Shown one piece after another: positions 58,532 to 64,000 of a DNA stretch of 64,000 nucleotides (the first letter of the stretch is position 1; the number at the start of each line of letters is the position of its first letter). Source of the DNA: Leptospira sp. (lineage in GTDB: Bacteria > Spirochaetota > Leptospiria > Leptospirales > Leptospiraceae). The notes beneath the pieces are model-generated. The model was not told where the DNA came from. It worked only from the letters and a program-made list of their open reading frames with translations, and did no database searches. Location: positions 1 through 64,000 of the forward strand of contig JAWXAQ010000030.1 of the NCBI GenBank assembly GCA_034439575.1. Reading direction: 5' to 3'. Both the position numbers and the translations under genes were made by a program.

Positions 58532-60562
58532 TTATTTTTTATCACCAAACAAATATCCCTTTATCCCCCCAAAAGTATCCTTTACAGTTCCGATCGTTTT
58601 ATCAACAGTATCCGATGCCGTTGAGCCAGCTATTCCACCTAACAAGGCACCTGCAGGTCCTCCAAATAATAAAGTCCCGGTGTAAACTGAGGCAAGCCAT
58701 ACAGGATCAATATAAGCTACGTTTTTCCCATAAATTCCTTTATATAAAATAGGCAACTTGACTGCTTTGCCGACAAATCCAGATAAGGCGACTGTGAATT
58801 TTAAATTCATTTTTCCTGAATTCCCATAAACACCTGATCCCGTAGCATTTAAACCAACACCTGTCATTTCAAATTGATTTAGATACACATCCTTATTTTT
58901 GACGGTTACATTACCTACTATGGATTCGAAACCAGTGCTCTCACCTTTGGGACCATTGTAGTTTAAAATTTTTCCAATTTCAGCAACTGGTTTTATAAAA
59001 TTCGCATAACCCAAAAGTTGTCCTTTAACTATTTTGAATTTTGAATGCAAAATTAAAGATCTACCTATAGATTGTGGATTGTTTACATTTAGATCCGTCG
59101 AGACATTACCATAAAGAGTTCCCTTAATCAATTTATCTCGCGTAACAAAGGAGAGTGCCTTTTCGGAATTTATACCTGAAAGATTAGAAACTATATGTAT
59201 CTTTTTAGTTATTAAATCAAAATGGCCATTATTTTTAACTTGGCCATCAAAAACACCAATGATGAAATCTTTCAATAATATCTTATCATCTTTAAGCTCT
59301 ATGGGACCACGTACATACGTTATATTTGTTTTATTATAAATCGTTTTTTTAAGATCTAAAGTTATTAAAATATCATTCTTTATTTTAATTTTTTTAGCAT
59401 TCTCAGTGTTTGGTACATTCTTTTCGGAACTTGAAGGATTATTTGCAAAATAAACCGAACGTTGCAATTCTACTTTTGATAGATTTTGAACAAGAGGCAT
59501 TAATTTATCTACATTCAACTTTTCTGAAGTGATATTTAATTCTATTATTCTATTGTCTTCTGATTGTTTTAAAAATCCCTTTAAACCAACGGATGTGTCC
59601 TCATTCGAAAGTAGATTGAAATTCTTAATTTCTAAGTGTGAATTTTTGATCGCATAATCGAGAAAGAAGGAAACTTCAAGTGCAGGCAATTCCATTTTAT
59701 TTTTTGTTTTGATGCCCTGGAGTTTTAAGGAATCAAGATGAATCGAAAGATTATCTTCATTTTCTTTTAGGATGTTTAAAGATAAATCCAGAGATGTATC
59801 TTTAAAATCAGAAAGATAAAATATGGATGTAAAATCTGCAACCTGCGAAGGCTTAAAATTCAAAAATGAAATATGCGATTTTGTACGCACGGAACTCAAA
59901 TCCCAATTATTATTTGTTAAATAAGAATCTGATTGTAAGGAAATTTCATTACCATCCAATGCCATTTCAAGAATAGTTTCTATAACAAGGTCACTTTTAG
60001 AAAATTTCAAATCCAATGTATCGATTTTGATATTATGATTGGTTTTGATTTGTTTATCCGAATATTCTAATGTTATATTTTTTATATTTATATTTTTTGG
60101 CAACAATTGGAATACCGCGAGCGGGCCTTCGTCCACCTTTTCTTTGCCTTCATCAATTTCATGTGCATCACTTTTGAAATTTTCAACAATTTCAAATTTA
60201 CCTTTTTCATCTTTGACGAGTGAAACATTTCCATTTTCGATATCGACTGAATGTATAGAGACACTGTCGTTAATAAGTGAGAAGATGGAAAATTTAATAA
60301 TGATTTCTTCTATTTGACAAATTTCCTTTTCGCCTTTTAGAATTTTCAGTCCTTTGATTTTCATTCCAGGTCTTGGAAATACGACAGATCCAATTTCTTC
60401 ATATTCCACATCGAGAAGAAAAAAAGTTTGAATTTTTTCTTTTACGTAATCTTTAACAAGCCTTTGGTCCAATACCTGTTTGATTCCTACAAAACAAATG
60501 GAAATGAATAATAGAAAGGCAATTGTGGATTTATAAATAATTTTGAATACTTTGCTCTTCAT
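58532..60562 (-). CDS. AsmA-family protein
   Basis: N-terminal TM helix; long beta-rich body; C-terminal FESIVGNVTVKN...ATGSG. Confidence 0.75.
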   Translation of the reverse strand: MKSKVFKIIYKSTIAFLLFISICFVGIKQVLDQRLVKDYVKEKIQTFFLLDVEYEEIGSVVFPRPGMKIKGLKILKGEKEICQIEEIIIKFSIFSLINDSVSIHSVDIENGNVSLVKDEKGKFEIVENFKSDAHEIDEGKEKVDEGPLAVFQLLPKNINIKNITLEYSDKQIKTNHNIKIDTLDLKFSKSDLVIETILEMALDGNEISLQSDSYLTNNNWDLSSVRTKSHISFLNFKPSQVADFTSIFYLSDFKDTSLDLSLNILKENEDNLSIHLDSLKLQGIKTKNKMELPALEVSFFLDYAIKNSHLEIKNFNLLSNEDTSVGLKGFLKQSEDNRIIELNITSEKLNVDKLMPLVQNLSKVELQRSVYFANNPSSSEKNVPNTENAKKIKIKNDILITLDLKKTIYNKTNITYVRGPIELKDDKILLKDFIIGVFDGQVKNNGHFDLITKKIHIVSNLSGINSEKALSFVTRDKLIKGTLYGNVSTDLNVNNPQSIGRSLILHSKFKIVKGQLLGYANFIKPVAEIGKILNYNGPKGESTGFESIVGNVTVKNKDVYLNQFEMTGVGLNATGSGVYGNSGKMNLKFTVALSGFVGKAVKLPILYKGIYGKNVAYIDPVWLASVYTGTLLFGGPAGALLGGIAGSTASDTVDKTIGTVKDTFGGIKGYLFGDKK

Positions 60563-60601: not shown

Positions 60602-60997
60602 CTATAACTTAGATTGTTTTCTGACTAAGAAATAAAAATAAATTAATAAAATTCCATAAAACAAATCAAAAACGATAGGACCAAGGAGGAATATTCTCGC
60701 TTCACCTAAACTAAATAACAAAATCCAAGTGGAGGCTATAAACAATTTCACCAAACCGCCAATAAGTGCGAGAAGGCTATTTTCTATAGGTTTTAAACTT
60801 AAATAATAATATCCGATACCCAATACAAATATAGCAAACCAAAGATTGTAATGATAAAACTTAACAAGTGAATCTTCAAAGGTTCTGCCATAAAATAAAC
60901 TAGTATGAAGATCCAAGGCGATTAACGCTGATAATCCTGCCAATATATTTACAACAGCTGTGACTAAAAAAGCTCTTTTGAAAAAAATTAAATTCAT
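60602..60997 (-). CDS. Small four-TM membrane protein
   Basis: Hydrophobic 131-aa ORF in an operon-like run. Confidence 0.7.
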   Translation of the reverse strand: MNLIFFKRAFLVTAVVNILAGLSALIALDLHTSLFYGRTFEDSLVKFYHYNLWFAIFVLGIGYYYLSLKPIENSLLALIGGLVKLFIASTWILLFSLGEARIFLLGPIVFDLFYGILLIYFYFLVRKQSKL

Positions 60998-61009: not shown

Positions 61010-61615
61010 TTATTTATCCTGTGATTCGTCAACTTTCTCATTCTCTTTCTGTTTGATATTAGAATCACTGACTTCTGAGCCCTCGAAAGGAATTTTTGTC
61101 TTTTCTACATCTAACAAAGGCCCTAGTTCAAAAATTTCAGAATACCCATAGGCCCTTAATGAATTGTAAGTCGAAAGATTCAATGATGCGGCCGGTGCTT
61201 TAGCGGCAAACGCGGCCGGACTCCCATCAAAATTATTATTACAGTATATTAGAATTTTTGACTTTTTCGATGGAATCACTTTTGCTAAGTTAGTTTCTGT
61301 AAATTCCGTAAAGGGTAAATTGAGGGCTCCCGTAATGTGACGAAGGTTATATCTTGATTCTGACCTCGCGTCTAAAACAATTACACCAGACTCCTTCATC
61401 ATAAGAAGAAATTTATCTTCTGTAAGTCGATGAGATTCTCTTGTTTCTGCCGAGGTATCTACGATCCTTTGAAATTCTTTGTAATCAATCAATTGATTTT
61501 GAAATTTATCTTCTGTAACTTTTCTTTGATTCGGTTTTTTTTTCTTGGATTTCGCATCCACCAAACCAATACAAACAAGAAATATTAATATCCCAAATAA
61601 AGATTTAAATTTCAT
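61010..61615 (-). CDS. Exported rhodanese-like domain protein
   Basis: Signal peptide; [23 protein letters not shown]. Confidence 0.85.
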
Positions 61616-61769
61616 ATCATCCTACCCATTGGCAAACCAATTGAACCAAATTTTGCTTATGCAAAATATGATAGGACCAAATTTTCATTTAGTAAAGCAA
61701 GATTTACGTAATCAAAAACAGGTTAATTTTGCACTTGCCGATAAAATGCATTCGGAATCCCTTCCATTT

Positions 61770-62279
61770 ATGGGACAACTTACAGCGACAATCAAAACAA
61801 ACAAGGGCGACATTCGCCTCACCTTATTTGCTGACAAAACACCAAACACTGTGGCAAATTTTGTGAACTTAGCGAATCGAAAATTTTATGATGGTTTGAA
61901 ATTTCATAGGGTCATCGCGGATTTTATGGTCCAAGGCGGATGTCCACTGGGAACTGGAACGGGTGGACCAGGTTATAAATTTCGAGATGAATTTTCGAGC
62001 GAACTCAAACACAATAAACCAGGCATTCTTTCCATGGCAAATGCCGGACCTGGAACAAATGGCAGTCAATTTTTTATCACACACGTCCCAACTCCATGGT
62101 TAGATGGGAAACATACTGTGTTTGGTGCGATCATTGATGAAACAGATCAAAAAGTTGTGGATGCGATCACTCAAGGTGACAAAATAGAATCCATAAGTTT
62201 TGATGGTGATACTGCTTCAGTATTATCGATCGCTCAAGCGAATGTGGATGAATGGAATCAAATTTTGGATAAAAAATAA
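61770..62279 (+). CDS. Cyclophilin-type peptidyl-prolyl cis-trans isomerase
   Basis: [50 protein letters not shown] 61770. Confidence 0.96.
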
Positions 62280-62343
62280 TTACTTAATTTTTAAATATTT
62301 CGTCTAACATTAGAGAATGGATTCATAATCATAGGAGTCTGTT

Positions 62344-62532
62344 ATGGCGAAAAAAGATAAAGAGTTCGAACAAAAAATAAAAATGGCTAAACAAGTTTCT
62401 CGTATACTTTTTAGCCACAAACCGACGAAAGTCAAACCTTCTGCAAAAATGTATTCCAGGAAAAAAAAAGAACTTCCTGGAATTTTTTTTATTTTACCGT
62501 TCCTAAATCTATATACGCACCATCATTCATAA
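62344..62532 (+). CDS. Small basic protein, candidate ArfA/BrfA-like ribosome rescue factor made from a non-stop mRNA
   Basis: RBS AGGAG at 62333-62337; Lys/Arg-rich residues 1-42 ending PTKVKPSAKMYSRKKK; terminator-like hairpin inside the ORF. The coding call is more secure than the function. Confidence 0.6.
   Translation: MAKKDKEFEQKIKMAKQVSRILFSHKPTKVKPSAKMYSRKKKELPGIFFILPFLNLYTHHHS
62453..62490 (+). terminator. Intrinsic terminator inside the 62344 ORF (may also serve the convergent gene)
   Basis: ATTCCAGGAA-(11 nt)-TTCCTGGAAT with a T8 run at 62483-62490. Confidence 0.75.
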
Positions 62533-64000
62533 TCACAAAACTTCTAGTTTCTACATCTACATTTTTATTCCCATCAAAACGTATGACTTGCATAGCACCC
62601 ATACCATAACCCATTGGACCTCGACTATAATAATGCGCTTCCAATTTATACGGAAAGGCTTTGGGATTTAAAATTCGAAAACATTCAGGGCCATAACCTC
62701 CAGTCAAATCAGCATACAAGGCACCACCGGATGCAAGTTCTTTGGAGCTGTAAAAAGCATGTTGCTTGTCTTTATCATAGATGTGAAAGTCAACATCATT
62801 GGCATCTGTTTCCCAAACTAAAATAAATCGTATTTCATTTCCCAATTTTTTAATTTTGATATTTTTTAATTTTTCAGGACTTGGTAATTTTTTGTCCTTA
62901 TCTATGTTTGATATAGAATATAACAAATCCAAATCATCATAAAAAATATCATGCACATTGCTAAATCGACTTGGGAAACTACGATTTAAACCTAAGATGA
63001 TTGTATCATAAGCTTTTAACCAATTTTGCGATTTCAAATAAGAGATAAATAACAAATGATAGGTGCTAGGATGGTCTGGCCTTTCGATCAGAGCCTTTTC
63101 AAAAGTATCAATTGCTTCATTGTACATAGCAATGGATAATAATTTTTCACCTGCCCATCTGCGAATATCAGCTCTCCTGGGAAAATAATCCACAAAGGAA
63201 GTATAAGACCTGACTGCATTTTTTCTATCTCCCAAAGCAAAATAACTGTCGCCAAGCGCAAGTAAGGCAAGTATATCTTCTGGCGACTCTTCCCGCCAAT
63301 CTTTCGCAAACTTTAAGGCTTTTAAATTTTCACCAGCATGAAGATAGGAATAAAATTTCTTTAGATTTCCTTGGTAGGGATCAATTTTTTCTCTTTTTTC
63401 TGTTTCATTCACATTATTTGCGTTAACGGGACGTGAATCCAAGGCAAATTGATTTCTAGTGGGTGGCACCACAGTATCAGTCGTAATTCTTTGCGGAACC
63501 ACTTCTTCATTTTTGATTCCTTCTGTGTCCGTGTTTACCTCCGCACTCGGAACGGCTAAATTAAGTCTGTCATCAGCAAATGAATCTTTCATTCCATTCG
63601 GGGCATTATTTACTGATTCAGTTTTTTTAGATTCTCGAATTGATTCTGATTCCTTTTGTTTTTCACTCTCCTGCCTCCTTCGATTATTATCTGCACGTAC
63701 TGCATCTCTTTTTTCGCGATTTTCTGGAGCCAAAAAATCATAACCGACTAATTCTTTTCTATTTAAAATCTCAATTCCACTAAGTCCAATAGTCATAATG
63801 TCTGTTAGGGCATTGCGAGTGATTTGAAATCTATCATAATCATCAGCGGTTTCTAAAACCAAAAAGGATGTGAGTGGACATTGAATACGATGAGCTGAAG
63901 AAAGTTGAATTGCTTGTAACTTCATCCCATTCGCAATATCTTTGTTTGTTTCCTTTTCTGCTATGTCCAATAAATTTTTAATTCTTGCGGCTGTTACTTC
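62489..64000 (-). CDS. 3' part of a TPR plus DUF2135/YfaP-like domain protein (continues beyond the window)
   Basis: Frame is open to the window edge; TPR-like LLALGDSY...; C-terminal LVWETDANDVDFH...ADLTGGYGPE...YYSRGPMG. Confidence 0.85.
   Translation of the reverse strand, partial: EVTAARIKNLLDIAEKETNKDIANGMKLQAIQLSSAHRIQCPLTSFLVLETADDYDRFQITRNALTDIMTIGLSGIEILNRKELVGYDFLAPENREKRDAVRADNNRRRQESEKQKESESIRESKKTESVNNAPNGMKDSFADDRLNLAVPSAEVNTDTEGIKNEEVVPQRITTDTVVPPTRNQFALDSRPVNANNVNETEKREKIDPYQGNLKKFYSYLHAGENLKALKFAKDWREESPEDILALLALGDSYFALGDRKNAVRSYTSFVDYFPRRADIRRWAGEKLLSIAMYNEAIDTFEKALIERPDHPSTYHLLFISYLKSQNWLKAYDTIILGLNRSFPSRFSNVHDIFYDDLDLLYSISNIDKDKKLPSPEKLKNIKIKKLGNEIRFILVWETDANDVDFHIYDKDKQHAFYSSKELASGGALYADLTGGYGPECFRILNPKAFPYKLEAHYYSRGPMGYGMGAMQVIRFDGNKNVDVETRSFVIMNDGAYIDLGTVK

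Follow-up and report, generated by a model that had tools for sequence, protein, structure and literature searches.

A 62-codon open reading frame (ORF) of Leptospira sp. assembly GCA_034439575.1 (contig JAWXAQ010000030.1, positions 1 to 64,000 of the forward strand; this whole 64,000-nt stretch is called the window) has a terminator-like hairpin within its own coding region. It appears to belong to a new, phylum-spread family of small basic proteins that follow the self-truncating, stop-less mRNA principle of ArfA and BrfA, two factors that rescue ribosomes, and an in-ORF hairpin or terminator was a conserved feature shared by this family. We regard it as quite likely that the small protein is encoded by a non-stop mRNA and gated by transfer-messenger RNA (tmRNA). 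The full reading, a release-factor-dependent rescue factor by analogy with ArfA and BrfA, is given a probability of roughly 0.55-0.6. An earlier note on this DNA had proposed an ArfA/BrfA-like rescue factor here, and its interpretation was supported for architecture and analogy; the AGGAG ribosome-binding site, the 62-codon ORF, its peptide and the hydrophobic character of the read-through tail were all as it had described them. The parts of the gene are as follows:

62333-62337, forward strand: Shine-Dalgarno sequence AGGAG, with a 6-nt spacer to the ATG at 62344 (from the sequence).

62344-62532, forward strand: nominal ORF of 62 codons (62 aa) from the ORF list, with the TAA stop at 62530-62532.

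62344-62469, forward strand: coding core, codons 1-42, conserved in alignments, with a K-rich N-terminal segment and the invariant R20 and F23.

62453-62483, forward strand: in-ORF hairpin (from the sequence and RNAfold, with covariation across the genus).

62484-62490, forward strand: T7 tract (from the sequence), with a predicted RNA 3′ end at approximately 62488-62492 (codons 48-50), before any stop codon.

62491-62529, forward strand: read-through tail ILPFLNLYTHHHS, hydrophobic, overlapping the last codons of the convergent gene.

The hairpin in the window consists of a 5′ arm ATTCCAGGAA (62453-62462), an A-rich loop of 11 nt and a 3′ arm TTCCTGGAAT (62474-62483). The claimed 10-bp stem at 62453-62483 with a T8 tract was thereby confirmed base for base; the T run at 62483-62490 is T8 counting the last stem base and T7 after the stem. 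Hairpin and T tract cover codons Y37 (62452-62454) to F49 (62488-62490). In intrinsic terminators the RNA ends after the hairpin and U tract, and on this basis an RNA 3′ end is predicted near 62488-62492. The gene design of ArfA and BrfA, a hairpin in the ORF upstream of the stop, was thus found in silico, with hairpin and T tract at 62453-62490 and the stop codon starting at 62530. The stop codon of the convergent gene (62489-62491) lies within the T tract, so that the nominal stop of the small ORF is 41 nt inside the convergent gene (approximately 40 nt in the earlier note). The centroid of the 10-bp hairpin was -12.4 kcal/mol (RNAfold). As a single sequence the fold was only mildly unusual (z = -1.93; 9 of 200 shuffles folded equally well), and a simple terminator scanner did not call it because its loop exceeds 8 nt. 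An Rfam scan of 62100-62700 returned only far sub-threshold matches. That the feature exceeds chance is indicated by the comparison across loci, not by the fold of the window sequence alone.

For this comparison, the 123 loci with a match to the family hidden Markov model (HMM) were reduced to 71 distinct loci by removing identical copies and locus L208, which was dropped as a probable false positive. The control set comprised the last 100 nt of 1200 long ORFs from the window's genome. The loose terminator test (stem of at least 6 bp, dG ≤ -7, at least 5 T in 8, wholly before the stop) was passed by 60 of the 71 family loci vs. 191 of the 1200 long ORFs. The strict test (at least 9 bp, dG ≤ -11) was passed by 56 family loci (79%) vs. 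38 long ORFs (3.2%). As a positive control, the script found the known hairpin of E. coli arfA (19 bp, ending 18 nt before the stop).

The arrangement was similar in different parts of the family. Within the window's genus, the stem overlapped the Y-S/T-R-K codons, with the stop downstream, in all 29 loci where the script found the ORF. Genus g6 had a GC-rich stem of 12-17 bp and a T tract, ending 10-21 nt before the stop. Genus g17 had a canonical GC-rich terminator in frame, with the stop 14 to 116 nt later and very different frame lengths. In the other families, a GC-rich stem and U tract directly followed Y-x-R-K-x-K-H-K in 17 of the 19 scored loci, and the 3′ arm and U tract encoded ...SSFF..., ...PFF... 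and similar residues. The borderline locus L210 showed the same arrangement of stem and U tract. The distance from the end of the stem to the stop ranged from 3 to 116 nt across loci, and the tails were unrelated in length and sequence. The strength of this evidence lies in the recurrence of the terminator with unrelated stem sequences in different families. According to the prediction of the earlier note, the basic core and the hairpin/U tract should be conserved and the tail and stop position should not; this held well beyond Leptospira. A conserved terminator within a small conserved ORF is therefore a usable computational signature for such factors.

Covariation was scored on a 25-sequence alignment of the genus over a 16-pair helix. 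Changes on both sides were observed in 7 of the 16 stem pairs (30 cells). The covariation score was 0.224 vs. 0.120 in shuffles; none of 500 shuffles reached 0.224, and slid controls were all lower. The Arg39 codon varied together with the residue encoded by the 3′ arm: CGA occurred with Ser in 31 of 31 cases, AGG was combined with Pro in 6 of 7 cases, and the one AGA case had Ser. A synonymous switch at Arg39 was thus accompanied by a change of the amino acid that the 3′ arm encodes, and RNA pairing overrides the peptide there. Unrelated GC-rich stems occupied the same place in other families, tail and stop positions were free to vary across the family, and conservation of the window's tail ILPFLNLYTHHHS was limited to its closest relatives. 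Selection was on the structure, not on the sequence or the tail peptide.

The ORF was a real gene under purifying selection. A homologue was present in all 41 genomes of the genus (protein search; E values from 1e-6 to 1e-15, approximately 50% identity), and K16, S19, R20, F23, T28, K29, K31, P32, S33, K35, Y37, R39 and K40 were invariant or nearly so; in family alignments, the core after F23 reads K-P-T-K-V-K-P-S-x-K-x-Y-S-R-K-K-K. Over 25 gapless core codons, dN/dS was 0.147 (mean dN 0.169, mean dS 1.152; 39 distinct sequences, 497 of 741 pairs with usable dS). The orthologue in L. biflexa Patoc is LEPBI_I2122. Neither this protein nor the homologues of saprophytic Leptospira had a Pfam domain, and public sources name the proteins only as "hypothetical protein" of saprophytic Leptospira, Leptospiraceae or Spirochaetia.

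The family was wider than the genus and patchy within Spirochaetota. A profile search within the order matched 38 of 38 sampled genomes of the genus, three genomes of the sister genus g6 (E approximately 1e-14) and small ORFs of a second family (genera g17, g23 and g24; E between 2.6e-4 and 0.04). The matches of this search in g2 and g3, two genera of the window's own family, all had E > 0.01 and fell in long or interrupted frames; they were read as noise. HMMER returned 39 matches at E ≤ 1e-3 among 1.84 billion representative proteins. Thirty-eight were small proteins (35-91 aa) with the same core, and one (P0035) was dropped as a repeat protein. When these proteins were added, a phylum-wide search at E ≤ 1e-3 detected members in 58 of the 401 Spirochaetota genomes sampled, including 24 genomes of seven further families (f10, f15, f27, f35, f50, f53 and f56). 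Overall, the small protein extends to no fewer than nine spirochaete families besides that of the window. The search found no member in g2 (0 of 19), in g3 (0 of 20) or in either of two large families (0 of 38; 0 of 50), and the site downstream of the cyclophilin gene held no homologue in four g2 genomes. Distant members with source-given organism names came only from metagenome-assembled genomes of Spirochaetia and Leptospiraceae.

We infer termination at this site in vivo, tagging of the product, ribosome binding and release-factor recruitment as the steps of the following mechanism. Transcription would stop at the hairpin and U tract (codons 37-49) and leave a message without a stop codon, and the product would be a lysine-rich protein of approximately 49 residues, made from an mRNA that ends within its own reading frame. 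Ribosomes would reach the 3′ end, and tmRNA-SmpB (tag ANNEFALAA) would tag the product for degradation while trans-translation works. If trans-translation were saturated or lost, the untagged truncated protein would accumulate. Its basic tail (K-x-K-P-S-x-K-x-Y-S-R-K-K-K) would enter the empty mRNA channel of non-stop ribosomes, and the N-terminal part around R20 and F23 would recruit a release factor, most likely release factor 2 (RF2), for peptidyl-tRNA hydrolysis, as in ArfA and BrfA. The gene anatomy argues strongly for gating by trans-translation. Rescue activity and release-factor dependence are proposed by analogy, backed by a modest ArfA-like motif match.

The components that this mechanism would use were present in the window's genome, which encodes tmRNA with the tag ANNEFALAA (the tag that ARAGORN lists for L. 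biflexa), SmpB, RF2 (SPF motif) and release factor 1 (RF1; PVT motif). It also encodes a third protein found by the RF-1-domain search:

Contig C33, 1408-1854 (locus L076), forward strand: ArfB-like GGQ protein of 148 aa with a lysine-rich basic C-terminal tail.

Three RF-1-domain matches were found in all 58 sampled genomes of the window's family. Four genomes of g17, two of g23 and one of g24 that have the small gene had only two such matches, and therefore no ArfB-like protein was found in them; SmpB was present in five of five checked.

Similarity to ArfA was found at the level of a short register. The earlier note had cited a basic ...SYxRK segment in ArfA, and E. coli ArfA (yhdL) does contain ...KGKGSYMRKGK.... 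Three hhalign runs of the family against E. coli ArfA, each with another family alignment, agreed on one gapless register, in which family L22-F23 matched ArfA L24-F25 and family Y37-x-R-K matched ArfA Y39-x-R-K. On the family HMM, E. coli ArfA scored 7.9 bits and reversed ArfA 3.1 bits. When the whole sequence was shuffled, 1 of 5000 shuffles scored at least 7.9 bits; when shuffling was confined to residues 22-50, 13 of 5000 did. Only this one comparison was made, it had been chosen beforehand, and it used E. coli ArfA alone; the best 80 and 120 relatives listed were Enterobacteriaceae at least 79% identical. The match thus appears better than chance and too short to separate remote homology from convergence. 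According to PMC6299226, residues 15-31 of ArfA contact RF2, with F25 in an RF2 pocket formed by V198 and F217, and the KGKGS segment occupies the mRNA channel. The pocket residues are kept in the RF2 of the window's genome as V199 and F218.

Database searches gave no such link. The ArfA family of Pfam (PF03889) had no match in the ORF at E ≤ 1, matched only elsewhere when the genome was searched in six frames at E ≤ 10, and matched 0 of 38 family members at E ≤ 10 (E. coli arfA, as control, scored 89.7 bits). An NCBIfam search of the ORF found nothing. A profile search of the PDB returned two chance-level matches and no ArfA or BrfA chain at E ≤ 10; a BrfA chain is, we assume, present in that database.

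Like ArfA, the spirochaete protein has a hydrophobic read-through tail and a colinear layout, with Leu-Phe approximately 14 residues before a K-rich ...Y-x-R-K-x-K segment. By contrast, the first 20 residues bear no relation to those of ArfA, P/S/K stand in place of the glycines of KGKGS, and the hairpin starts 0-22 nt after the Tyr codon in most loci, whereas that of arfA starts 36 nt after it. Most family members also have the U tract of an intrinsic terminator, whereas E. coli arfA is reported to be cut by RNase III, and the family occurs in Spirochaetota, whereas ArfA is described from beta/gamma-proteobacteria (PMC11633108).

BrfA resembles the family in gene design. The earlier note had stated that BrfA uses a terminator inside its ORF and is regulated by tmRNA, and PMC6881298 reports both: an intrinsic terminator within the coding region of BrfA (B. 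subtilis YqkK) yields a stop-less mRNA, and as long as trans-translation works the product receives the SsrA tag and is degraded. Most members of the spirochaete family share this design. Unlike the design, the sequences were not linked by the PDB profile search or NCBIfam, and the comparison with BrfA was indirect only. BrfA homologues are reported from a subset of Bacillaceae, mainly the genus Bacillus (PMC6881298).

ArfT of Francisella tularensis is described as a basic protein of 40 aa whose K/G-rich C-terminal segment is proposed to insert into the mRNA channel, as not controlled by truncation, and as working with RF1 or RF2 (PMC6299226). It was first reported as narrow and placed in a broad family by one analysis (PMC6514570). 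By description, stop-containing family members of 35-50 aa resemble it in size and in arising from a normal mRNA. The positively charged tails of ArfB and SmpB are reported to probe the empty mRNA channel of non-stop ribosomes (PMC6299226), and the basic C-terminal segment of the small protein resembles them. ArfB contains a GGQ hydrolase domain of its own, whereas GGQ is missing from the small protein, and the ArfB-like gene is separate.

A Pfam search of 38 family members gave no match with E < 0.004. Twelve families were listed, all of them sub-threshold, and the broad ArfT-containing family was without a match either. The best was DUF7230 (PF23876), just sub-threshold in 3 of the 38 members (best E = 0.0043; P0022 and P0036 were among the matching proteins); the matches covered the ...K-x-Y-x-R-x-x-K-H... 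segment of this 42-position domain. L210, a spirochaete locus with an in-ORF hairpin, scored 25.6 bits against a cut-off of 27. The window's protein had no DUF7230 match, and no match exceeded the cut-off in 201 sampled spirochaete genomes or in 14 control genomes. DUF7230 may be a sister family elsewhere. A remote homology of the spirochaete family to proteobacterial ArfA, possibly bridged by DUF7230, is held as a tentative and rather doubtful idea; the two would then have in common the Leu-Phe contact to the release factor, the K-x-K...Y-x-R-K channel tail and the in-ORF hairpin. If it were true, bacteria would have invented RF2-recruiting, tmRNA-gated rescue factors long ago and these would be widely dispersed, overlooked by standard searches because the proteins are tiny; at present such factors are viewed as several late inventions, each specific to a lineage.

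Several observations weigh against a self-truncating rescue factor. Fifteen of the 71 loci failed the strict terminator test. Among the loci that departed from the common arrangement, the hairpin had a weak or absent T tract in seven (L004, L005, L006, L011, L030, L053 and L066), four (L009, L017, L027 and L028) passed the loose test only, the stop lay within the 5′ arm of the hairpin in L065 and L067 (genus g23), and L197 and L205 had a plain stop and no hairpin. In addition, many metagenomic members were called as proteins of 35-50 aa with a stop soon after the motif. The core can apparently be made from a normal mRNA in such ordinary-stop members, as is reported for ArfT, and L065, L067, L197 and L205, whose ordinary stop directly follows the basic motif, suggest that the gene has switched repeatedly between forms with and without a stop. 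The loci are kin, and the counts therefore overstate independent support. At the sequence level, none of the known rescue factors was significantly linked to the protein: the hhalign P values against ArfA were 0.12, 0.038 and 0.06, and the resemblance is short and basic-rich and may reflect convergence or chance. The retained V199 and F218 are weak evidence because these pocket residues may be conserved in RF2 generally. The window's genome already holds an ArfB-like protein, and the hairpin in the window and in most of the genus could also terminate the convergent gene. The sole public runs containing the stretch were wastewater contigs, which cannot show RNA ends and so speak neither for nor against (five runs, with a share of the stretch of 0.09-0.16 each; among the contigs of four of them, one of 300 nt covered 62204-62503).

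A tmRNA-gated protein with another task on the ribosome or on RNA, for example in hibernation, subunit splitting, stress regulation or as a helper of ArfB, and not as a release-factor recruiter, would account equally well for all the evidence of a non-stop design. The third RF-1-domain match throughout the window's family and the lack of significant homology to ArfA, BrfA or ArfT fit such a role. We nevertheless consider it unlikely: the Phe with which ArfA contacts RF2 falls within the ArfA-like register, genera with the small gene and no ArfB-like match would otherwise be left without a back-up to tmRNA, and the only two known proteins of this gene design both recruit RF2, as reported in PMC6881298.

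By a crude stop-to-stop test, the next long downstream frame was convergent in 44 of the 71 loci, co-directional in 26 and missing within 400 nt in 1. In the window, where it is convergent, the minus strand carries the same hairpin followed by ACAUUUUU, a U5 run, which could also end the transcript of the convergent gene, and the hairpin in the window's genus probably serves both strands. Tight gene packing around such a shared or bidirectional terminator could place it over the 3′ end of an ordinary small basic protein, for example ribosome- or nucleic-acid-binding, that is translated to its annotated stop; the four loci with a normal stop and no complete in-ORF hairpin upstream of it (L197, L205, L065 and L067) and the only mildly unusual single-sequence fold agree with this. 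However, a working plus-strand terminator would leave the stop codon untranscribed, and of the two U tracts the one on the plus strand (U7, directly abutting the stem) is the better. Co-directional loci included genera g6 and g17, both with strong in-ORF terminators, so the feature does not depend on a convergent gene, and it recurs in families whose stems are unrelated. Neither tails nor stops are constrained, and the strict rate is far higher in the family than in long ORFs. An ordinary protein therefore seems quite improbable, and the self-truncating message is preferred.

Translation-coupled attenuators likewise have a short ORF that extends through a terminator hairpin, and the small ORF could be the leader peptide of a pyrBI-type transcription attenuator in which a ribosome in the hairpin decides read-through into a downstream gene (the Rfam model Phe_leader matched far below threshold, at 19.9 bits vs. 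a gathering score of 55, E = 0.94), but this is highly improbable: the next gene in the window is convergent, leaving nothing downstream to regulate, there are no runs of regulatory codons, and the peptide, unlike leader peptides, is conserved across the phylum with dN/dS of 0.15. The neighbours of the small gene differed between genera, so that no operon partner or attenuated downstream gene was apparent, and with a convergent gene in the window and unconserved neighbours elsewhere, no co-directional gene controlled by read-through was found.

To our knowledge, ArfA, ArfT and BrfA are the only three rescue factors that are known to depend on a release factor. In full-text literature (main texts that are openly available), we found no spirochaete factor of this kind and no mention of LEPBI_I2122, in agreement with the statement of the earlier note that none was known to have been described in spirochaetes. 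A survey table lists 0 arfA and 0 brfA in 108 Spirochaetota genomes and, with the column order inferred, ArfB in 16 of the 108 (PMC11633108). ArfA and BrfA are reported only from narrow groups in the texts of PMC11633108 and PMC6881298, and the discoverers of BrfA and of ArfT both predicted more undiscovered factors (PMC6881298, PMC6299226). The family bears on how most spirochaetes cope when trans-translation fails, and the gene is a concrete, testable candidate in a genetically tractable and non-pathogenic organism (L. biflexa). If g2 and g3 should correspond to pathogenic and intermediate Leptospira, the failure to find the gene in them would bear on the interest in trans-translation as a drug target.

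Other features near the small gene are as follows:

61545-62279, forward strand: cyclophilin-type peptidyl-prolyl isomerase gene, upstream (PF00160, E = 1e-45; the longest frame is given).

62301-62307, forward strand: CGTCTAA, a -10-like promoter motif that recurs upstream of homologues and may act as a promoter.

62489-64000, reverse strand: convergent tetratricopeptide-repeat (TPR) gene, running off the window (ORF list, Pfam).

Upstream of the small gene, TTACTT (62280-62285) lies 16 nt before CGTCTAA. The sequence GTCTA(A/T) or CGTC(T/C)A was conserved at the corresponding place in several genera (loci L001-L073), often with a TTG-type hexamer (TTGATT, TTGAAA, TTGCAA or TTGACA) 16-21 nt upstream of it. 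We take the motif to resemble the -10 element of extracytoplasmic-function (ECF) sigma factors (CGTC) more than that of sigma-70. Homologues with the motif 5-6 nt before the ATG had no Shine-Dalgarno sequence, which suggests a leaderless mRNA for these genes; those with the motif farther from the ATG, the window included, had AGGAG or GGGAG in between. A genome-wide scan for GTCTAA beside start codons gave 12 matches, none of them convincing.

The convergent TPR-repeat protein has at least 493 aa. Its middle is a long low-complexity region of acidic/basic character, and its C-terminal domain is conserved and has no Pfam match in the part inside the window. Farther upstream, the ORF list includes two minus-strand frames: a 676-aa ORF with an N-terminal hydrophobic segment (58532-60562) and a 131-aa multi-pass hydrophobic ORF (60602-60997).

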